Virus record (IMG/VR): IMGVR_UViG_3300036804_000195
Span: 1-56,281 of that record
Origin: a virus
Lineage: Duplodnaviria; Caudoviricetes
Reading direction: 5' to 3' (one strand)
DNA length: 56,281 nucleotides
This document shows, in pieces, positions 4,125 through 53,244 of the stretch. The first letter of the stretch is position 1; every line of letters starts with the position of its first letter. The notes beneath the pieces were generated by a model, which saw nothing but the letters and a program-made list of their open reading frames with translations, did no database searches and had not been told where the DNA came from. The translations under genes and the position numbers were made by a program.

Positions 4125-4528
4125 CCAGCGCGGCTCCCGGCGCGCAGCCCGGCGGCAACCCTTCGTTGTCGCCGGGCAGGCGGGCGTGCGACCAGTGCGG
4201 CGGAGCGCTGCCAGGCAGGCGCCGGCGCTTCTGCAGCGACCTGTGCCGCCGCCGCGGCCACCGGGCCGAGCGGCGCACCGAGAACACCGAGTACCTCGAC
4301 GTGGTCGGACGGATGCTCCGCCACGCCGCCCGCCGCGGCAGCGTCGACCTCGAGGCGTTCGCCGCGCTCGGCGAGCTGGACGCCGAGCTGCACGACCTGA
4401 TGGCCACCGCGGCGCACGCGCTGCACGCCCGCGACTACACGTGGGGAGAGATCGGCCGCGCGTTCGGGGTGACCCGGCAGGGCGCCCGGCAGCGATGGGG
4501 AGGCGACCAGTTCGATGCCGCGCCGTAA
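4121..4528 (+). CDS. Zn-finger plus HTH DNA-binding protein
   Basis: CDQC...FCSDLC; C-terminal YTWGEIGRAFGVTRQGARQRWG HTH. Confidence 0.75.
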   Translation: MTSAAPGAQPGGNPSLSPGRRACDQCGGALPGRRRRFCSDLCRRRGHRAERRTENTEYLDVVGRMLRHAARRGSVDLEAFAALGELDAELHDLMATAAHALHARDYTWGEIGRAFGVTRQGARQRWGGDQFDAAP

Positions 4529-4784
4529 CCACCGGCCGCCCGTCGGCGAGCCGGTACCGCGCCGCCAGCCGACGGCAGAGGACGCCGGGCTGCAGCCCGC
4601 ACAGCTCACCGACCTCGCGCACCGGGTCGCCGCAGCGGCCGTCACGGCGCGCGGGATGGCCGAGTCCGAGCCCGGCGACTCGCGGTGGGCGTACCCGCTG
4701 CACGGCATCGCCGACAGCCTCGACAGCCAGGCCGCGGCGCTGCGGCAGATCGCCCGCGCGATCGGCCGCAGGCACGCGCCCTAA
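4515..4784 (+). CDS. Hypothetical protein
   Basis: GGAGG upstream; 89-aa ORF ending just before a hairpin. Confidence 0.55.
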   Translation: MPRRNHRPPVGEPVPRRQPTAEDAGLQPAQLTDLAHRVAAAAVTARGMAESEPGDSRWAYPLHGIADSLDSQAAALRQIARAIGRRHAP

Positions 4785-4790
4785 AACGTG

Positions 4791-4818
4791 CGGGGCCGCG
4801 CAGACCCGCGCGGCCCCG
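4791..4818 (+). promoter_or_regulatory. Perfect 11-bp hairpin upstream of the RAMP-like gene
   Basis: CGGGGCCGCGC-AGACCC-GCGCGGCCCCG. No U-tract, so it may be a terminator, processing site or stabiliser. Confidence 0.55.
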
Positions 4819-4843
4819 GCCTAACAAGGAAAGGGAATCACCC

Positions 4844-5452
4844 ATGTATCAGATCATGCGGATCGGCATCGAGGGCGTCGGACACGGCCTCCTGATGAAC
4901 AACCCGGCAGGCATGGCCGCACACACCGACGAACTGGTGCGCGCCGGCAAGAAAATACCGGTGCCCTATGACGAGGCCGTCTCCAAGCTGTACATCGTCC
5001 CCGGCGGCAACCAGCTCTACGGTGCGTCCGACTGGTTCCGCGAGGCCGCACTCGTCGGGGCCAAGGCAGTGAGGGATACGAGCCGCAGCGGCCGCGCCAG
5101 CATGGTCCAGAGTTTCGGCGCCAATGTATTCCTGTCCGAGCCGTACTGCCCGCTCGTCCGCGCCAGCACCGGCAAGCCCATCACCAGCGCCGACGACGAG
5201 TGGGAGATATTCCTCAAGCGAGCCGTCGTCCAGGGCAACGGAATCATGCGCTCCCGGCCGCTCGTCCACGACTGGGCCTGCACCGTCGAATTCGAATACG
5301 ACGACGAGGGAATAGCGCCGGCGATGGTCGCGGCAATTCTCCACATCGCCGGCAAGTTCCCAGGAGTCGGCGACTACCGGCCCGGTAAGAAGGGACCGTT
5401 CGGAAGGTTCCGCGTGATGGAGCTGGACGGGGAAGGATGGCAGCCGTCATGA
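4844..5452 (+). CDS. Stand-alone RAMP/Cas7-like RNA-binding protein (Vipr-like)
   Basis: 202 aa with AAGGAAAGGGA RBS. N-terminal strand MRIGIEGVGHGLLMNNP, helix SDWFREAALVGAK, MRSRPLVHDWACTVEFEY, and C-terminal Gly-rich loop GVGDYRPGKKGPFGRFRV typical of RAMPs. Lies next to a GGY-NN array. Confidence 0.75.
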   Translation: MYQIMRIGIEGVGHGLLMNNPAGMAAHTDELVRAGKKIPVPYDEAVSKLYIVPGGNQLYGASDWFREAALVGAKAVRDTSRSGRASMVQSFGANVFLSEPYCPLVRASTGKPITSADDEWEIFLKRAVVQGNGIMRSRPLVHDWACTVEFEYDDEGIAPAMVAAILHIAGKFPGVGDYRPGKKGPFGRFRVMELDGEGWQPS

Positions 5453-6147
5453 GCGAGCTTGTGCCGGTCGCGGAGCTGAATCTGGACATGGGCCTCTATC
5501 CGCGGAACAGCGTCAGCGAGGCGCACGTGACCGAGCTGGCGCGGGTCATGGAAGGTGGCCACGAGCTGCCGGCCATCGTCGCCTGCCGCGCCACGAAGCG
5601 CATCGCCGACGGCGCACACCGCTGGACCGCTGCGGTGCGGCGCGGCAGCGAGACGATCGCAGTCGACTGGCGCGACTACGCCGACGACAAGGCGTTCTTC
5701 CGCGACGCCGTCCTGCTCAACTCCGGGCAGGGCCTGAACTTCACCTCCTACGACCGGCTGAAGGTCATCACGGTCGGCCGCGAGTTCGGGCTGAAGGAAA
5801 TCGACCTGGCCGGGCTGCTGCGCACGTCGCCCAGCTACATCAAGGCACTGATGCCGAGGTATGCCGTGATGACCGAGGACCAGAAACGCGGGAAGGCCGA
5901 GCGAACCAGCAGAGTGCCGCTGAAGGCCTCGACCCGGCACCTGTCCGGGCAGACCATCACGCCGAAGCAGGCCGACGCGATCAGGGGAAACGCTCCCGGC
6001 ACGTCGTACCTGCTGACGGTGCGCCAGCTCGCCAGCGCGCTCGAAAACGATCTGCTGCCGCCGCCGGGCCAGCACCCAGCGCTGTGGCAGGAACTGGAGC
6101 AGCTCGGCGAGATGATCGCAGCCGCCGCAGCGGCGACAGCAGCATAA
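5449..6147 (+). CDS. ParB/Sulfiredoxin-like N-terminal domain protein coupled to the RAMP gene
   Basis: ATGA overlap. VPVAELNLD...YPR...HVTELA...LPAIVA...IADGAHRWTAA (DGxHR motif), followed by a helical region EIDLAGLLRTSPSYI. Confidence 0.75.
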   Translation: MSELVPVAELNLDMGLYPRNSVSEAHVTELARVMEGGHELPAIVACRATKRIADGAHRWTAAVRRGSETIAVDWRDYADDKAFFRDAVLLNSGQGLNFTSYDRLKVITVGREFGLKEIDLAGLLRTSPSYIKALMPRYAVMTEDQKRGKAERTSRVPLKASTRHLSGQTITPKQADAIRGNAPGTSYLLTVRQLASALENDLLPPPGQHPALWQELEQLGEMIAAAAAATAA

Positions 6148-6153
6148 AAAAGT

Positions 6154-6542
6154 GAGGATGTGGCGTCGCGAGGCGAGCCGCGGCATGGCGGGGCAACGCG
6201 CGGCATGGCGGGGCGAGGCGTGGTGAGGATCCGGCGCGGTTTGGCTGGGCCCGGCTTGGCATGGCTAGGTCAGGCGCGGCGAGGTGAGGCGAGGACGCGG
6301 CGGGGTGCGGCGAGGCATGGCATGGCCCGGCATGGCGAGTTGCGGCAAGGCGTGGCGTGGCCAGGCATGGCGAGGATTTGGCGTGGTGAGGTCGCGCTAG
6401 GCGCGGCGAGGCCTGGCGGGGCCAGGCGTGGTGAGGCGTGGTGAGGACGCGGTCAGGTCAGGCGAGGCGTGGTCAGGCCTGGCTGGGCGAGGCCAGGTGA
6501 GGTGAGGCAAGGGCGCGGCCCTGAGAGCCAATCTAAGCGCCC
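6154..6542 (+). ncRNA. GGY-NN pentamer array: five putative guide RNA units plus a 3' hairpin
   Basis: 65 pentamers, 60 with GGC/GGT. GAGGA+3 nt separators at 6154, 6225, 6291, 6372, 6443 (spacings 71, 66, 81, 71, all 5n+1). Terminal stem GGGCGC 6511-6516 / GCGCCC 6537-6542. Confidence 0.8.
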
Positions 6543-6650
6543 GGGATCTGCCCGCGGCCGATAGCCCGGACCGGGCCGAGTTCGCCAGTGTGGCGCACAG
6601 CGACGGCCAGCGCAGGCCACCTGGGCCAAGTTGCCCAGCCAGACGGGCCA

Positions 6651-6666
6651 TGTTTCACGTGAATCC
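6651..6666. promoter_or_regulatory. parS-like site
   Basis: TGTTTCACGTGAATCC versus bacterial parS consensus TGTTTCACGTGAAACA (14/16); intergenic. Confidence 0.6.
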
Positions 6667-6718
6667 ACCGGGCATGACAAAACCGCCCCCGGCAGGCAGC
6701 ACCGGAGGCGGTATAAGC

Positions 6719-6757
6719 GGCAGGGGCCGGCACGAATGCCAGCCCCTGCCTTTCCTT
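6719..6757 (+). terminator. Intrinsic terminator at the convergence of early and late operons
   Basis: GGCAGGGGC-C-GGCA-CGAA-TGCC-A-GCCCCTGCC followed by TTTCCTT. Confidence 0.6.
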
Positions 6758-6810
6758 GGGGTGGAACCGTAGCGCGCGCAATATGCGCGCAATTGAAGTG
6801 CCAGGCCAGC

Positions 6811-8013
6811 CTAGCCGCCGGCCTTCCGCCAGGCGAGGTAGGCGCGTTTCATCTGCTCGTTGTCGCCGATGTGGCGGAGCGCGGCCCACGGGTCGCCGAC
6901 GGCGGCCAGCGCCGCGTCCCGGTCCGACACCGGGGTGGGCGTCGGGGTCGGAGTCGGCGTCGGGGTGGGAGCGGGCGGCGCGCCCTGGAGGACGGCGAGC
7001 AGCCGGGCGCCGTCGGGGACACCGAACCCGGTGGCCTCGTCGCGGCCCGGGCCGGCGCGGAACGCGCCGTTGCTGCCGGAGGTCACGTCGAAGCACACGG
7101 TGGCGTTCGCGGCGACCTCGGAGGTGAAGTCGAACGATGCGCCGGCCAGCTCGAGCAGCCGCAGGTACAGGCCGAGGTGCAGCGGCGCGACCGCGCTGGT
7201 GCCGCCGAACACCGCCTGCTCGCCGTCGACGATGACCTGGTAGCCGGTCTCCGGGTCGGCGTTGCCGGCGATGTCGGGGACATCGCGGCCGGGGAACAGC
7301 ACCGACACGCCGCCGCCGCCAGCCGACGATGACGAGTCGTCCCAGACGACCTCGGCCGACCGCGCGCCGGCGGAGGTGAGCGTGAGGCGGGTGCCGCCGC
7401 AGCCGGTGACGTTCGGCGAGCTGGCCGGGTAGTCGACGTGCTTGCCCGACTCGCCGTCCCCGGACCCGGAGTCGCCGGACGCGGCGAAGATCTGGATCCC
7501 GGCTTTCTTCGCGGCCGCGAACGCCGCCTCCATCTTCGTGATCGTCGACGCCGACCACTCGTTTTCCGGGCCGCCCCAGGAGATGGAGATCGCGTCGACC
7601 TTGTCCGCGGTGGCGGCCTCGATCGCGGCGATGAAACCGGCGTCGGTGTTCGGAGCGAAGTACACGTTCAGGGTGGCGTCCGGAGCGAGCGCGCCGGCGA
7701 CCTCGATGTCCAGGAGGACCTCGCCGTCGGCGCCGTCCGGGCCGTCGCTGGTGTTCGAGCCGCCGGCGACCGGCTTCGACACCACGTGCGGCACGGGCAG
7801 GCCGAGCCCGCCGAAGTAGGCGTCCAGGTCCTCGGCGCCGAAGCCGCCGCCCAGCTCGATGATCCCGCCGGTGCGGCCCTTGCCGGTCGCAGCCGGGTAG
7901 TTGTAGGCCCCGGCGACCTGCAGCGGCGTGTACCCGCCGGCGGCCGCGAGAGGCTTGCGGAGGTAGGTGCTGGCGGCGATGAGCGGCGCGCCGCTCATGG
8001 TCGGTTCACTCAT
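6811..8013 (-). CDS. S53 family (sedolisin/kumamolisin-like) serine peptidase without prodomain
   Basis: IIELGGG, EVLLDIE (Glu/Asp), SISWG, AASGDSGS, DYPASSP, VPDIAGNADP, GGTSAVAP (catalytic Ser); PT linker and short C-terminal tail. Confidence 0.9.
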   Translation of the reverse strand: MSEPTMSGAPLIAASTYLRKPLAAAGGYTPLQVAGAYNYPAATGKGRTGGIIELGGGFGAEDLDAYFGGLGLPVPHVVSKPVAGGSNTSDGPDGADGEVLLDIEVAGALAPDATLNVYFAPNTDAGFIAAIEAATADKVDAISISWGGPENEWSASTITKMEAAFAAAKKAGIQIFAASGDSGSGDGESGKHVDYPASSPNVTGCGGTRLTLTSAGARSAEVVWDDSSSSAGGGGVSVLFPGRDVPDIAGNADPETGYQVIVDGEQAVFGGTSAVAPLHLGLYLRLLELAGASFDFTSEVAANATVCFDVTSGSNGAFRAGPGRDEATGFGVPDGARLLAVLQGAPPAPTPTPTPTPTPTPVSDRDAALAAVGDPWAALRHIGDNEQMKRAYLAWRKAGG

Positions 8014-8263
8014 GGTCTGGCGTCCTTTCGCCCGGCGCGGCGGCCGGGACAGTCCGGTTCTGGTGGGGAGCGAGGTAGCCGGCGAGCAGCGCCAGGCCGC
8101 CGTCGGCGATGACATGCGCCAGGTAACCCGCGATCGCGGGAGGCGCGGAATGCCAGATCAGGTGCAGGCCGAGCTGCACGAGCGCCGCGGCGGCCGCGGC
8201 AGCGGCGCCGGAGGCTTTCACCTTGGGCGCGACCGGCCAGCGGCCGCTGCGGCGACGGCACAT
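8006..8263 (-). CDS. Holin (actinophage type)
   Basis: VAPKVKASGAAA...two hydrophobic segments...AGYLAPHQNR; located in the lysis cassette. Confidence 0.7.
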   Translation of the reverse strand: MCRRRSGRWPVAPKVKASGAAAAAAAALVQLGLHLIWHSAPPAIAGYLAHVIADGGLALLAGYLAPHQNRTVPAAAPGERTPDHE

Positions 8264-33317: not shown

Positions 33318-33789
33318 GGGCGGCCTCCACCTCGTCGAACGGATCCTCCTCCTCGCGGTCGTCGCGGCCAGGCTGCGCAGGAACGGGCACGCCAGGCACG
33401 CCGAGCCCGGCCTGCTCGAACAGCGCCGACCGGCGCCAGGAGATCCGCAGCAGCCGGTCGATCGCGCGCAGCGACAGCGCCGGGTCGTGCCGGGCGCCGT
33501 CGGAGGACGCGGAGCGGAGCAGGTTCTGGGTCACGCGCTCGAGAGTGTCGAGCCGCTCCAGCTCGAGCAGCACGAGCTGGTCGACGCCAGCGGACACCAG
33601 CTCGGAGCGGCGAGCCTTCATGGCCCGGCCGAAGTCCTGCGCGGCCGCGCCCGGGGTCTTGTGCCCGGTCTCCTTGGCGATCGCCGCGAACGTCGCCCCG
33701 GCGGCGCGCATCTCGAGGACCTGCTTGCGCCGGGCGGCGACCTTGTCGCGGTCACGCGTCGACGGCGACACCAGCATCCTTATCGGCAC
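33286..33789 (-). CDS. terS: Terminase small subunit (HTH)
   Basis: RRKQVLEMRAAGATFAAIA...LELERLD...AIDRLLRI...DPFDEVEAARDRRR; upstream of terL. Confidence 0.75.
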   Translation of the reverse strand: MPIRMLVSPSTRDRDKVAARRKQVLEMRAAGATFAAIAKETGHKTPGAAAQDFGRAMKARRSELVSAGVDQLVLLELERLDTLERVTQNLLRSASSDGARHDPALSLRAIDRLLRISWRRSALFEQAGLGVPGVPVPAQPGRDDREEEDPFDEVEAARDRRRRAARG

Positions 33790-35005
33790 GTATCGGCTTT
33801 ATTCCGGTGAATGCCTCGAAGCGGGCGCAGATGACGTCGGCGAACCGCGGATCCAGCTCCACCATCACCGACCGGGCCCCGAGCTTGTGCGCCGCGATCA
33901 GCGTCGACCCCGACCCGGCGAACAGGTCCAGGACCAGGCCGCCAGGCGGGCACGAATTCTCCAGGCACCGCACGATCAGCTCAACCGGCTTCATCGTCGG
34001 GTGCGCCTCCGACCGGCGCGGCCGCGGGAACTCCAGCACCGACGTCTGCGTGTTGCCGCCGAACCAGCCATCCGCGCCGCGGCCGCGCTTGGACTCCGCT
34101 CCCCCGGTGAACCCGTACTCGAGCTGATCGTGCCGGTAGCCGAACGCGACCGGCTCGTGCCGGTAGTGGAAGTCCGAATGGCCGAGCACGAGCGAGTCCT
34201 TGACCCAGACAAGGCCCTGCCGGTAATCCCAGCCCGCGGCCTTCCACGCGGCCAGGAACGCCGCTGCGCCCGGACCGGCCGGGTGGCACACATACACCGC
34301 GGCGCCCGGCCGGAGCACCGCGGTGGCCGACGTGAACGCCGCGGCGAGCAGCCCGGGCACCTCGGCCTCCGTGTCGCCCTGGATCGACACCCCGGCGGCC
34401 GACTCGTACTCGACGCCATACGGCGGGTCGGTCCACATGCAGTCGGCCAGGTCGCCGCCCATCACCGCCTCGACGGCCGCCAGGTCGCCCGCGTCGCCGA
34501 CCAGGAGCCGGTGATCGCCGAGCAGCCACGTATCGCCGGGCTGGGCCACCGTATCGCCAGGATCGGGCGCGTCCGGCACGCCTTCGTCAGGTTCTCCGCG
34601 AGTTTCCGGCCCGCGTAGCGACTTCAGATCGACCTCAGACCAGCCCGTGGCCACGAAATCGCCGTCCCACGACTCGAGCTGCTCGAGCTGCAGCGCCTCG
34701 TCGTAGCCGCCCAGCTCCGCCAGCCGGTTGTCCGCGGCGTTGACGCGGGAGGCCTCGCCGTCGTCGGTGTAGGCGCCGACCTCGACGCGGACCTCGGTCA
34801 GGCCCTCCTCGCGCATCGCGAGGACCGTGTGGTTGCCCGCGACGATCTGCAGCCGCCCGGCCTCGACCTCGCGGACCAGGATCGACCGGAACTGGCCGAA
34901 CCGGCGAACCGACTCGCGGATCGCCGGGACGTCGCCGAGCCGCGCATTGCCCGGAAACGGGTCCAGGACGCCGATCGGCACCACATCGGTGCGCAGGTAC
35001 TCCAC
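33752..35005 (-). CDS. ParB-like domain fused to an N6A/N4C DNA methyltransferase
   Basis: N-terminal PFPGNAR...IVAGNHT...ADNR; TDPPYGV; HPTMKPVEL; LDLFAGSGST. Confidence 0.9.
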   Translation of the reverse strand: MEYLRTDVVPIGVLDPFPGNARLGDVPAIRESVRRFGQFRSILVREVEAGRLQIVAGNHTVLAMREEGLTEVRVEVGAYTDDGEASRVNAADNRLAELGGYDEALQLEQLESWDGDFVATGWSEVDLKSLRGPETRGEPDEGVPDAPDPGDTVAQPGDTWLLGDHRLLVGDAGDLAAVEAVMGGDLADCMWTDPPYGVEYESAAGVSIQGDTEAEVPGLLAAAFTSATAVLRPGAAVYVCHPAGPGAAAFLAAWKAAGWDYRQGLVWVKDSLVLGHSDFHYRHEPVAFGYRHDQLEYGFTGGAESKRGRGADGWFGGNTQTSVLEFPRPRRSEAHPTMKPVELIVRCLENSCPPGGLVLDLFAGSGSTLIAAHKLGARSVMVELDPRFADVICARFEAFTGIKPIRADKDAGVAVDA

Positions 35006-36355: not shown

Positions 36356-36625
36356 TTAGCGGCCATAGCGGAGCTTGCAATACCAGACCAGCGCGGCGGT
36401 GCGCAGCCGGGTGGTCTGCAGGCGCAGCCTGCACGTCCACGGCAGCGGCGTGAGCACGACAGGACGGCCGTCGCGGACAGCGGACTGCCACCGCACCGCG
36501 GCGGCCGCGAAGCCGCACCCGGCCGCATGCTCGACACGGCGCCCAGTGTTGCCGAGCGGCGCGCCAGGCCAGCGGCCGCACGACGGGCAGACACCAGCCG
36601 ACGTGATCGGGCCGAGTTCCATCAC
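36356..36625 (-). CDS. Hypothetical protein
   Basis: GTGA coupling; CPSC...HAAGC. Confidence 0.45.
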   Translation of the reverse strand: MMELGPITSAGVCPSCGRWPGAPLGNTGRRVEHAAGCGFAAAAVRWQSAVRDGRPVVLTPLPWTCRLRLQTTRLRTAALVWYCKLRYGR

Positions 36626-36738
36626 GCGGACCCGCGCGGCCTGATGTGCACCATCGACCCCGCTGGCCGGCCGCACCAGCACAGCACCTGGCCGTTCTCG
36701 TCGACGGCGTGCAAGCCGTTGGGCTGGTAGGCGTGCAT
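36622..36738 (-). CDS. Small Cys/His peptide (38 aa)
   Basis: MHAYQPNG...CWCGRP...VH; coupled on both sides. Confidence 0.45.
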   Translation of the reverse strand: MHAYQPNGLHAVDENGQVLCWCGRPAGSMVHIRPRGSA

Positions 36739-37250
36739 CACGGCCGCCCGCGGACTTCGATGTGCGCGAGCGGGTTAGGGCAGTGGTTCTCCGGGCCCGA
36801 CTCGATAGGGCGCGGCTGGTTGAAGCGCCACGCGGCGTCCTCGGCCGTGCCGATCTCGCGGACAATGTACGGGTCGTTGCCCGGGCCATGCGACGGCGCA
36901 TAGGGCTGCTCGCCGGCGATGGTGAACGCTTCGCACAGCTCGTGCAGGTCGACGTCGCGGCACCGCTCGAGCAGCCACCGCCGCCAGCCACGAGCGTCCC
37001 AGGTTGCGGGCGGCACCGGGAAGTAGTTCATGACGCGGGTCAGCAGCTCCGGGTGCTGCGTGTCCGGCGCGGTGACCAGGATGCACAGCGTCAGCCCGGA
37101 GGACTCGCCGCGGCCGTACTCGGCCGGGTCGCGCACGACATCGGCGAGCGTGACCTTCCAGTCGCGGCCGGGCAGGCTGAACTCGGCGAGCAGGTCGGCG
37201 AGCGGCTGCGGGTACGGCGCGGTCTGGCGCATCTCGCGCATGGCGTCCAT
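36738..37250 (-). CDS. Hypothetical protein
   Basis: 170 aa; FPVPPATW...WRRWL...HELCEAF...PYAPSHGPG. Confidence 0.7.
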   Translation of the reverse strand: MDAMREMRQTAPYPQPLADLLAEFSLPGRDWKVTLADVVRDPAEYGRGESSGLTLCILVTAPDTQHPELLTRVMNYFPVPPATWDARGWRRWLLERCRDVDLHELCEAFTIAGEQPYAPSHGPGNDPYIVREIGTAEDAAWRFNQPRPIESGPENHCPNPLAHIEVRGRP

Positions 37251-37253
37251 CGG

Positions 37254-37370
37254 CTACCGGGCCTTCCGTTTCCAGGCCAGCACGCACGCGAAGGCAAGAC
37301 CGCCGGACACGACGCCGACCACTAGGTCATTGAGCAACTGCGCCCACCACGGCGCCGCGAAGCTGGTCAC
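37254..37370 (-). CDS. Small single-pass membrane peptide
   Basis: VTSFAAPWW...hydrophobic...WKRKAR. Confidence 0.45.
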   Translation of the reverse strand: MTSFAAPWWAQLLNDLVVGVVSGGLAFACVLAWKRKAR

Positions 37371-37374
37371 GTTC

Positions 37375-37542
37375 TTAGAGCTGGCCGGAGCGGCGAGCCC
37401 ACGGCGTGGCGAGGTGAACCGCCAGGCAGAGCAGGCCGATCAGCGCGAACGTGGTCGCGGTCAGGAACACGCCGCGGCCGATCTGCGCGAGCTGCAGGAG
37501 CAGCGCGATGGCGAACGCCACGATGGCAGCGAATCCGAACAT
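37375..37542 (-). CDS. Small two-pass membrane protein
   Basis: GAGGAGG RBS; MFGFAAIVAFAIALLL...LIGLLCLAVHL. Confidence 0.65.
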   Translation of the reverse strand: MFGFAAIVAFAIALLLQLAQIGRGVFLTATTFALIGLLCLAVHLATPWARRSGQL

Positions 37543-37569
37543 GAGGGGTTGCCTCCTCTGGAAGCGGGT

Positions 37570-52147: not shown

Positions 52148-52444
52148 GTGTACGCGAATCCCTACCCCAAGCCACCCGCCGGCGGCACACCCGCCGAGGT
52201 CACCCGCGCCGCCCGGCAGCTCGCACCGGGCCTCCTGGCCTTCATCGGCGAGCACGACGTCCCCGGCCACGGCCGTGCCCCGGCGCACGGCTGGGTGACG
52301 ATCACCAGCGTCCTCGGCGTCCACGGCTACCCCGGCCTGACGGCCGTCTGCTGGACCGCCGGAACCGCCAGTGGCGTCGCGTTCTACCCGAACCTGTGGC
52401 CGGTGCTGACCCGCGGCGCCGCGACCTTCTGGGCGACCGCATGA
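52148..52444 (+). CDS. Hypothetical protein
   Basis: 98 aa, coupled to the next gene. Confidence 0.55.
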   Translation: MYANPYPKPPAGGTPAEVTRAARQLAPGLLAFIGEHDVPGHGRAPAHGWVTITSVLGVHGYPGLTAVCWTAGTASGVAFYPNLWPVLTRGAATFWATA

Positions 52445-53244
52445 GCGCCGACCGGCAGGACTTCGTGCCCGTGGCGCTGCTGAGGCCGCACCCGGCCAAC
52501 CGGCGCGACCACGGCGACCTGAGCGAGCTGACCGAATCGGTCCGCCGCACCGGGCTGCTGCAGCCGGTCGTCGTCGAGCCCGACCCGCAGCACCCGGGCA
52601 GCTACCTCGTCACCGCCGGAGCCCGGCGCCTCGCCGCAGCGCGCGCCGCCGGGATGGCCGAGGTCCCCGTCACGATCCGCGAGCCCGTCACCCGCGGGCC
52701 GGCCGGGGCGATCGCCACCATGCTGACCGAGAACTGGCAGCGCCTCGACATGGGGCCCGTCGAGAAGGCCGAGAAGCTGGGCCAGCTCCGCGACCTCGGA
52801 TACACGCCCGCGCGGATCGCGGAGATGACCGGGCTGCGGACCTCGACGATCAGCCACTACCTGACGTTCCTCGAGCTGGACCAGCCGACCCGGCAGCGGG
52901 TCCGCGACGGCCTGGTCACCGCGGGCGACGCGGTCGAGGCCGTCCGGCAGGCCCGGGCGATCCGCCGGACCGGCAGCAAAGCCGCGCGGCCGAAAGGCGG
53001 GAAGCCGCGGCCGGTGTCGGTCGACGCGTTCTGGTTCAACTACAAGCACCCGCTCGCCGATGAGGTCCAGGTCATGTGCGAGCTGGCCGGCCACGACCAG
53101 CCGATCGCCCGCGGCCGGTCACACAACGAGAAGTTCGGATGCGGCCGCTGCTGGGAGAAAGCCATCCGCGCCGACGAACGCGAACGCGCCCGGCCGCGAC
53201 AGCCGCCAGCCACCGTCTCCTTCAACCCCGGCGGCCGCGCATGA
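52441..53244 (+). CDS. ParB/RepB/Spo0J family protein
   Basis: LRPHPANRR...ELTESV...GLLQPVVV...AGARRLAAA...ENWQRLDMGPVEKA, then HTH TPARIAEMTGLRTSTISHYL. Confidence 0.9.
   Translation: MSADRQDFVPVALLRPHPANRRDHGDLSELTESVRRTGLLQPVVVEPDPQHPGSYLVTAGARRLAAARAAGMAEVPVTIREPVTRGPAGAIATMLTENWQRLDMGPVEKAEKLGQLRDLGYTPARIAEMTGLRTSTISHYLTFLELDQPTRQRVRDGLVTAGDAVEAVRQARAIRRTGSKAARPKGGKPRPVSVDAFWFNYKHPLADEVQVMCELAGHDQPIARGRSHNEKFGCGRCWEKAIRADERERARPRQPPATVSFNPGGRA

Follow-up and report, generated by a model that had tools for sequence, protein, structure and literature searches.

A VIPR locus with a ParB-like accessory gene in a temperate actinomycete phage, and candidate targets of its guides in the capsid genes of rival phages

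What is the role of a long tract of GGY-NN pentamers, in which three bases are fixed and two vary, that follows two overlapping small genes in a phage genome? The question is posed by positions 4791-6542 of IMG/VR record IMGVR_UViG_3300036804_000195, a soil-metagenome virus contig of 56,281 nt with a G+C content of 72%, which was analyzed over its full length and is called here the window. An initial annotation, made from the letters alone, had seen at this place an RNA-guided system other than CRISPR, and had likened it to a kind of viral system named VIPR. The likeness is borne out in print: VIPR (Viral Interference Programmable Repeat) was described in 2026 as an RNA-guided DNA silencer (bioRxiv 10.64898/2026.04.26.720920). 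Our analysis indicates that the locus is very likely a VIPR system of a temperate 72% G+C actinomycete siphovirus, with five guides, of which at least one and probably two match capsid genes of rival phages.

The discovery preprint covers 667 VIPR systems and divides them into seven types. They are defined by a minimal RAMP protein (Vipr), guide RNAs (vrRNAs) of 9-16 YNNGG repeats and accessory vap genes, and their targeting follows a 1-nt skip rule (10.64898/2026.04.26.720920). The experimental work available concerns SUSP1 of E. coli, a Pseudomonas prophage and the small-RNA sequencing of type III/V loci expressed in E. coli, and a language-model preprint also recovers VIPR arrays. Judged by its sequence, the locus described here fits all the sequence-level criteria of VIPR and is thus of a kind already in print. 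To this kind it adds an actinophage clade with a ParB/KorB-like helper, the punctuation of the guides by their junctions only and, probably, capsid genes as natural targets.

The product of the first gene, vipr, had been proposed in the initial annotation to be a lone RAMP/Cas7-like protein, and both sequence and predicted structure confirmed this. The motif GVGDYRPGKKGPFGRFRV begins at residue 174 and the G-loop motif GVGDYRPGKKGPFGRF takes up residues 174-189. Comparison with the PDB by phmmer gave the chain 36pp_D, "SUSP1 Vipr protein", with an E value of 4.5e-6 and an ungapped alignment over residues 106-180, in which GVGDYRP...FGRF stands against GVGDWRP...FGRF. The phiSUSP1 gene was matched by tblastn at 5e-5, and pairwise BLASTP of the proteins gave 3e-12, with an identity of only about 30% over the C-terminal half. 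In the ungapped alignment R138, D177, Y178 and R179 occupy the positions of R138, D177, W178 and R179 of SUSP1, which, according to the structure preprint, hold the two guanines and the pyrimidine of the repeat, the pocket for the pyrimidine (Y) excluding purines. Among 49 homologues R138 and D177 were invariant, while Y178 and R179 were conserved in at least 90%. Other SUSP1 residues (H17, K33, R39 and K82) could not be aligned to the Vipr of the window. The initial annotation had supposed that each protomer grips one GGY, and this has to be corrected, as in the solved SUSP1 structure each GGY is held by two neighboring protomers.

The AlphaFold2 model of Vipr (pLDDT 91, pTM 0.86) was compared by Foldseek with a structure library older than the deposited Vipr entries. 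The best matches were Csm3/Cas7 chains of type III complexes (E 7e-6, TM 0.48-0.56, identity 9-15%). At E <= 1e-3 the matches numbered 75; the ones listed belong to RAMP-bearing effector complexes (type III, type VII and Cas7-11), headed by the Csm chains. Pfam gave no match for Vipr, and PADLOC none for either Vipr or Vap. The protein belongs to phrog_4652 (6.1e-14), a family of "unknown function", and its relatives are numerous: 107 cluster representatives were retrieved by a word-indexed search and 1,219 at E <= 1e-3 by an exhaustive search of a nameless library. Among the 107 representatives no Pfam domain was found, and no source name besides "hypothetical protein". Taking alignment and model together, we assign the open reading frame (ORF) to Vipr, with a predicted minimal RAMP fold.

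Vipr shares with Csm3/Cas7 of type III systems the RRM-based RAMP fold and the glycine-rich loop, and Csm3/Cas7 polymerises on its guide RNA with a fixed step. This step is of six nucleotides with one flipped in type III, whereas in VIPR it is of five with three sequestered. Besides, the window lacks the company that such proteins keep in CRISPR-Cas systems. The initial annotation had recognised neither cas genes nor a CRISPR array, and our scans agreed with it: no Cas family was matched by 32 ORFs compared with PHROGs or by 23 ORFs compared with PADLOC, and Tandem Repeats Finder detected no CRISPR-like array in the 56-kb genome. A second RAMP was not found in the genome either, nor were the marks of class 1 CRISPR-Cas (repeat-spacer array, cas1/cas2 and multi-subunit effector) found anywhere in the 56 kb.

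The tract behind the two genes (6160-6513) had been described as strictly 5-periodic. A pentamer tract is indeed there, but it is made of five phase-shifted blocks and not of one strict run (Table 1), and 60 of its 70 units are canonical NN-GGY. In blocks 1-4 the last unit is GA-GGA, with an extra base behind it (T, C, T and C, respectively), by which the phase moves +1 at each junction. The non-terminal units that depart from GGY (6160-6447) have CGC in three cases, GCC in one and GTT in one. The motif GTGAGGA-T at 6152-6159 is probably the 5' edge of guide 1. At the other extreme guide 5 does not finish in GA-GGA: its end is AA-GGG, running into the palindrome GGGCGCGGCCC (6511-6521). The discovery preprint mentions "staggered vrRNA arrays" (legend of fig. 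S18, 10.64898/2026.04.26.720920), a term that fits the five abutting blocks, shifted by one base, found here.

In order to provide a reference for this regularity, we counted GGY in phase over 13 consecutive units. The best stretch of the array has 12 of 13, and the best found elsewhere in the window, on both strands, has 6 of 13. The maxima in simulated sequences (2 x 50 first-order Markov sequences of 56 kb each) were 7 with the composition of the window and 8 with that of the array. We also considered the tract as a gene for an Arg/Gly-rich protein and rejected it on the composition of the codon positions. The 94-aa ORF that runs over the tract has a flat G+C of 0.77/0.73/0.75, against 0.64-0.67/0.45-0.48/0.84-0.94 in real genes of the phage, and is therefore spurious.

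Table 1. Position of the genes, putative guides and other sequence features of the VIPR locus in the window
Feature	Position	Strand	Description	NN pairs
G+C-rich inverted repeat	4792..4817	+	10-bp stem 4792-4801 / 4808-4817, 6-nt loop; read from sequence	
vipr	4844..5452	+	202-aa minimal RAMP (Cas7-like) protein	
vap	5449..6147	+	232 aa; ParB/Noc/KorB-like N-terminal domain + helix-turn-helix + helical C-terminal part	
Leading boundary motif GTGAGGA + T	6152..6159	+	five bases past vap stop; same GA-GGA-Y as ends of blocks 1-4	
vrRNA 1	6160..6229	+	14 units, 10 canonical	GT GT GA GA GC AT GG AA GC AT GG GA GT GA
vrRNA 2	6231..6295	+	13 units, 12 canonical	CC GC TT TG CC TT AT TA CA GC GA GA GA
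vrRNA 3	6297..6376	+	16 units, 14 canonical	GC GG GC GA AT AT CC AT GA GC AA GT GT CA AT GA
vrRNA 4	6378..6447	+	14 units, 12 canonical	TT GT GA CG TA GC GA CT GG CA GT GA GT GA
vrRNA 5	6449..6513	+	13 units, 12 canonical	GC CA CA GA GT CA CT TG GA CA GA GA AA

We have searched for these guides in other genomes with the skip rule of VIPR, by which the non-target strand, taken in the same sense as the guide, reads NN-x and one base is skipped per unit. The searches were made with exact seeds or, for guides 3 and 4, over 381 actinomycete genomes (the class of a Streptomyces genome). Natural targets of VIPR are described as being in the sense orientation, the base that is skipped falling on the codon wobble (10.64898/2026.04.26.720920). 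Read in this way, guide 3 gives the peptide AGAEI(I/M)PMDAKVVQI(D/E). When up to 3 mismatches in 30 positions were permitted, the 381 genomes contained a single match and the reversed-pattern control none. The match lies in frame in the HK97-type capsid gene (PF05065) of a prophage of Nocardioides sp. MH1 (L026/L032) and amounts to 28/32, compared with a maximum of 23 for shuffled guides in the 80 kb around this gene (22-23 for the shuffled maxima overall). Other capsid genes are matched by the same guide at 30/32 in a prophage of Actinoplanes liguriensis (L034), at 28/32 in an Actinomycetota metagenome-assembled genome (MAG; L035) and at 26/32 in an Actinomycetes MAG (L033). A relaxed pattern added one further IMG/VR viral contig (L039) at 28/32. 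The exact 11-unit sub-pattern gave no match in the IMG/VR viral contigs because the known targets differ at unit 6. The candidate target of guide 3 is thus a conserved stretch of the HK97-type (PF05065) capsid gene in actinomycete prophages.

The first 11 units of guide 4 read LVERYAELGQV, a C-terminal motif of PF05065 capsid genes and the candidate target of this guide. This guide was matched in frame in the capsid genes of two IMG/VR contigs (L008 and L009), with 22/22 in the core and 25/28 overall. An exact scan of 22 bases over 185,579 species genomes gave only one match, in the homologous capsid gene of a prophage in an Acidobacteriota MAG (L011), with 22/22 in the core and 24/28 overall; the peptide is the same, and 7 of 11 wobble bases differ. 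Across L008:1501-1542 and L011:1501-1542 the first and second codon positions are identical in 22/22, and the elements as a whole are 72% identical in DNA. This pair shows a natural example of how the wobble-skipping code tolerates synonymous drift.

The matches of guides 1, 3 and 4 are all sense-oriented and have the skipped base on the codon wobble position, and the capsid groups matched by guides 3 and 4 are homologous to each other (E 9e-12). The capsid protein of the phage itself has no match to PF05065 and no similarity to the target capsids. No self-targeting of 80% or more was found in the genome, the best self-match being 21/28. At least one of the five guides, and probably two, match capsid genes of rival phages. 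The initial annotation had supposed a non-contiguous code of guides directed at rival phages or at host genes. For rival phages this stood, by the matches of guides 3 and 4 to capsid genes. For host genes no match was found in these searches: the sole one in a housekeeping gene, that of guide 4 in panB (20/22, over the 381 actinomycete genomes), is at the level of chance and was rejected.

These matches also bear on the possibility that the Vipr-vrRNA filament binds the mRNA of rivals, in the manner of the type III Csm/Cmr backbones. Apart from VIPR itself, the nearest solved folds belong to Csm3 subunits of RNA-targeting type III complexes, and the SUSP1 filament is reported to be able to pair with single-stranded RNA in vitro (structure preprint). 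However, the matches of guides 1, 3 and 4 have the same sense as the mRNA, which leaves the template DNA strand, and not the mRNA, as the strand with which they could pair. Besides, the VIPR preprints show DNA binding and repression from either strand, and the filaments formed on RNA are incomplete. We consider an RNA target highly improbable, and silencing at the DNA level remains the reading that we prefer.

The neighborhood of vipr was compared in other viruses. A single Vipr protein as query gave no relatives in viral or genome contigs. With an alignment of 20 Vipr sequences we found seven IMG/VR viral loci, and none in genome contigs. The initial annotation had suggested looking for GGY-NN tracts beside the homologues, and arrays of at least 6 units were found in six of the seven loci (L004 is the exception by that criterion) and in the Mycobacterium phage Saal. 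A Vap homologue is present in five of the seven. In L001 and L002 the layout is that of the window, with vipr, vap and abutting blocks that end in GA-, AG- or AA-GGA plus one base, at a protein identity of 43-53%. The window and these two loci add up to 23 regular blocks of 9-17 units, and among their 273 non-terminal units 257 are canonical. GGA is followed by C in 20 cases and by T in 3, and the last three units are mostly purine-purine.

The conservation of this layout argues against the possibility that the locus is an inert remnant, with genes and array intact in sequence and no longer expressed or used. A remnant would agree with the facts that the only sequencing run in which the locus was found is of soil DNA and that three of the five guides lack a convincing target. 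However, both ORFs have full length and keep their functional residues, most units of the array are canonical, the arrangement persists in L001 and L002 in spite of the divergence of their proteins, and guide 3 is within two positions of the capsid gene of a living prophage. We regard an inert locus as very unlikely.

More distant Vipr loci (L003, L005 and L006, with 36-42% identity) have their arrays placed differently. The array of L003 (3373-3938) lies between vap and vipr, and the blocks of L005 (4516-4970) and L006 (3889-5600) are spaced by 40-800 nt and not by one base. In the arrays of the three there are gaps of 10-70 nt. These arrangements point to guides with tails or with some other kind of spacing in the sister clades. 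In L007 the array accompanies vipr without a ParB-like gene.

Cross-matches of the array by blastn appeared in 19 Mycobacterium phage records, Saal included, at 69-70%. The GGY-NN array of Saal is flanked by gp50 and gp51 (L012:3000-3982; 36588-37569 of the record), and gp51 belongs to phrog_4652 (3.8e-58) and is thus a Vipr, in the same PHROG family as that of the window. The annotated coding sequence of gp51 (248 aa) starts inside the array and matches the profile from residue 63, for which reason its start was probably called too early. As in the window the array adjoins the gene, but in Saal it is located directly upstream of vipr, and the gene downstream of gp51 (151 aa, phrog_15946) has no Pfam ParB_N match. 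In the records of the cluster-F-type mycobacteriophages with phrog_4652 loci (Saal, Gorge, BobaPhett and others), all these genes are listed as coding for hypothetical proteins.

The second gene of the locus, vap, was called from 5437 by ORF prediction. The consensus of its homologues begins with MxELVPV, and so we place its start at the ATG at 5449, which overlaps the stop of vipr as ATGA. The initial annotation had described a coupled ParB-like partner, and this description held. Vap matches phrog_1033, "ParB-like partition protein" (1.3e-10), and the homologues of L001 and L002, 43-44% identical, pass the Pfam threshold of ParB_N (26.9 and 32.5 bits against 26.3). The precomputed PF02195 domain appears in 10 of 36 homologues, one of which carries the source name "ParB-like nuclease domain". 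A profile of 24 homologues found ParB and Noc in the PDB at an E value of 1e-3. The AlphaFold2 model (pLDDT 92) was matched by Foldseek to Noc, ParB and KorB with E values of 1e-7 to 1e-5 over about 140 columns, which include the N-terminal domain and the helix-turn-helix. Vap is thus a predicted DNA-binding helper. The prediction of a Vipr-Vap complex gave a score of 0.05 against a mark of 0.32, which counts neither for nor against binding.

With the CTP-dependent clamps ParB, Noc and KorB the model of Vap superposes in the N-terminal domain and the helix-turn-helix. It differs from them in its helical C-terminal half and in having an invariant D58-G59-x-H61-R62 (numbered from the start at 5437), which we take to occupy the position of the G-E-R-R box of ParB; no ParA was seen either. 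ParB-like nucleases carry a motif of the DGHHR type, which the invariant residues of Vap resemble. A VIPR system in which the ParB/sulfiredoxin-fold Vap is a nuclease or nickase, so that the targets bound by Vipr would be cut instead of silenced, has in its favor this motif, the ParB/Srx fold of the N-terminal domain and the name of the one homologue mentioned above. Some VIPR types do encode predicted nucleases (10.64898/2026.04.26.720920). Against it, the model of Vap comes closest in structure to the CTP-binding clamps and repressors (ParB, Noc and KorB), the helix-turn-helix included, and not to nucleases, and the nuclease-type vaps are tied to cellular defence islands (10.64898/2026.04.26.720920), while the locus studied here belongs to a temperate phage. 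We consider a nuclease unlikely, though it is the main alternative for the function of Vap.

The option that we find more interesting is that of a clamp or spreader, which at present is speculative and which we also hold to be rather improbable in its complete form. The Vipr-vrRNA filament would then be a programmable loading site, a kind of RNA-specified parS, on which Vap would load to spread or slide along the DNA of the rival, and GA-GGA-Y would be the tail-free mark that sets the length of the filament. A footprint of ~45 bp in the capsid gene would be enough to silence the whole late operon. Since the guides read codon positions 1 and 2 of conserved motifs, one guide would cover a family of rivals despite synonymous drift and differences in G+C.

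A ParB-like gene adjoining a long repeat tract also brings to mind a plasmid-type partition cassette, in which the protein would bind the GGY-NN tract as a centromere of parS-like iterons and the upstream gene would be unrelated; the phage has two further ParB_N-like genes. Of the ParABS components Vap has the ParB-like fold, but the 32 ORFs scanned gave no match to a ParA-like ATPase, and an integrase gene is present in the phage. The upstream protein is homologous to one solved with GGY-NN RNA, and arrays accompany vipr in the absence of a ParB-like gene (L007 and Mycobacterium phage Saal). The NN pairs of the array match foreign genes, and a centromere would leave unexplained the agreement of 30/32 NN positions between guide 3 and a foreign capsid gene. 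Partition is, in our opinion, hardly credible for this locus, and we keep to a VIPR system with a ParB-like accessory protein. The two other ParB_N-like genes are located at 33752-35005 (-), where the ParB-like domain is fused to a DNA methyltransferase (phrog_498, 3.9e-101; MTase_II in PADLOC), and at 52396-53244 (+), which codes for a ParB-like protein of 282 aa (phrog_6218, 3.1e-35).

Several observations weigh against this interpretation. The N-terminal half of Vipr gave no sequence alignment to the SUSP1 Vipr, and the Vap of the window scores only 12.8 bits for ParB_N, below the Pfam threshold of 26.3. Regarding the guides, the perfect cores of guide 4 appeared only in viral contigs of 57% G+C and in the Acidobacteriota MAG, for which a shared host with the phage is unlikely, and in the loci matched by guide 3 the same gene is matched by guide 4 at 19-21/28, within the range of the controls. 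The only match of guide 1, a 20/20 seed in the PF05065 capsid gene of a viral contig of 38.5% G+C, was not extended by its flanks (22/28) and could be due to chance, being a weak lead. Guide 2 had no exact 10-unit match in viral or metagenome contigs, and guide 5 none in viral contigs. Seed matches do occur by chance, as seen for guide 4 in panB and for guide 5 in two metagenome contigs. The comparison of skip rules for guide 3 (30/32 with the 1-nt rule and 19-20/32 with other rules) is not independent, because the loci had been found with the 1-nt rule. No sigma-70-like promoter was detected in 4400-7000, a consensus that suits actinomycetes poorly. Finally, the locus was found in one soil DNA run, which may be its source, and in no RNA run, and transcription, processing and ribonucleoprotein formation are inferred only.

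The two metagenome matches of guide 5 just mentioned reach 21/26 and 20/26, lie out of frame with any long ORF and were rejected as chance. The remaining guides did not converge on the contigs matched by guide 4, on the 80 kb around the Nocardioides capsid gene or on L033-L035.

The published systems nearest to this locus are those of VIPR type II, represented by SUSP1 and by a prophage of Pseudomonas fulva (10.64898/2026.04.26.720920, 10.64898/2026.04.26.720927 and 10.64898/2026.10.15.759431). Both are phage-borne two-gene vipr-vap operons beside GGY-NN guides of 9-16 units, with homologous Vipr proteins of the same length and the same positions contacting GGY. In both the targets are in rival mobile elements and aligned to the wobble position, without self-targeting at 80% or more. 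However, the guides of the window abut through GA-GGA plus one base and have no invariant structured 3' tail or pseudoknot, and its host is an actinomycete. Its Vap is ParB-like and unrelated to Vap1 of SUSP1 (146 aa), to which we found no similarity; Vap1 is needed for protection. The candidate targets differ as well, being capsid genes here and a satellite recombinase, lysogeny regulators and vipr genes there. Because the structured tail is absent and the vap is unrelated, the locus is not a SUSP1-like type II. Types III-V as published carry nuclease or helicase vaps (10.64898/2026.04.26.720920). The word "ParB" is absent from the main text of the VIPR-related preprints searched. Capsid genes are not mentioned as natural targets: "capsid" appears zero times in the main text of the discovery preprint, and the passages of the competition preprint that contain the word deal with other matters.

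If the system works as that of SUSP1, the vipr-vap operon and the array would be transcribed together or in tandem, and the array would yield five vrRNAs of 13-16 GGY-NN units, cut or otherwise delimited. Vipr protomers, one per unit, would polymerise along each vrRNA and display the NN pairs, with neighboring protomers holding each GGY through R138, D177, Y178 and R179. The filament would then pair with double-stranded DNA reading NN-x-NN-x, in a gapped R-loop where the skipped base is normally the codon wobble, and by binding there it would block transcription. The GA-GGA-Y junction probably ends one filament and starts the next, or marks a processing site. A filament should end at this point because the pyrimidine pocket of SUSP1 excludes purines and because the extra base breaks the five-base register. 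As guides 3 and 4 match rival capsid genes and the own capsid differs from them, the likely role of the system is to shut down capsid production by resident or co-infecting rivals.

The genome in which the locus is found is that of a temperate siphovirus. Its first 243 nt (1-243) are repeated at the end of the contig (56039-56281) with 98.4% identity (4 mismatches). Such an imperfect overlap is what the assembly of a circular or concatemeric genome from a population with slight variation should give, and the genome, of about 56.0 kb, is probably complete. Comparison of 32 ORFs with PHROGs identified a large serine integrase, large terminase, portal, protease, major capsid protein, tape measure and endolysin. 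The capsid protein has relatives at 48-59% identity in genomes of Amycolatopsis, Lentzea, Streptomyces and Streptosporangium, and the closest relatives of the terminase are found in Rhodococcus, Arthrobacter and Mycobacterium phages (at most 40% identity), from which we conclude that the host is an actinomycete. No Rfam families and no tRNAs were found in the window.

The VIPR locus closes a series of early or regulatory genes on the plus strand, and this series converges on the lysis and structural genes of the minus strand. On the latter side, a 434-aa ORF converging on the array (6811-8115, minus strand) has a subtilase domain (Peptidase_S8, 1.9e-10) and a (Thr-Pro)n linker, and adjoins the endolysin region. 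On the other side, the inverted repeat of Table 1 sits between vipr and the upstream ORF (stop at 4782-4784) and is possibly a terminator or insulator, to judge from its letters. It is followed, before the ATG of vipr, by the ribosome-binding-like stretch AAGGAAAGGGA. Near the array, terminator-like sites were found on the minus strand only.

The locus provides a clear actinophage example of VIPR whose accessory protein is of another kind, having the ParB/Noc/KorB fold. Its compact arrangement of guides, with GA-GGA plus one base as the sole punctuation, offers a simple way to study the length of the filaments and the boundaries of the guides. It also supplies a concrete and testable candidate for a natural target, the conserved HK97-type capsid motifs of actinomycete prophages, which the capsid gene of the phage itself lacks. 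In many sequenced actinophages phrog_4652 genes located beside repeats stand annotated as hypothetical proteins. If it is true that the ParB-like helper is a clamp loaded by an RNA-guided filament, the system would link the biology of ParB and CTP with RNA-guided DNA recognition.

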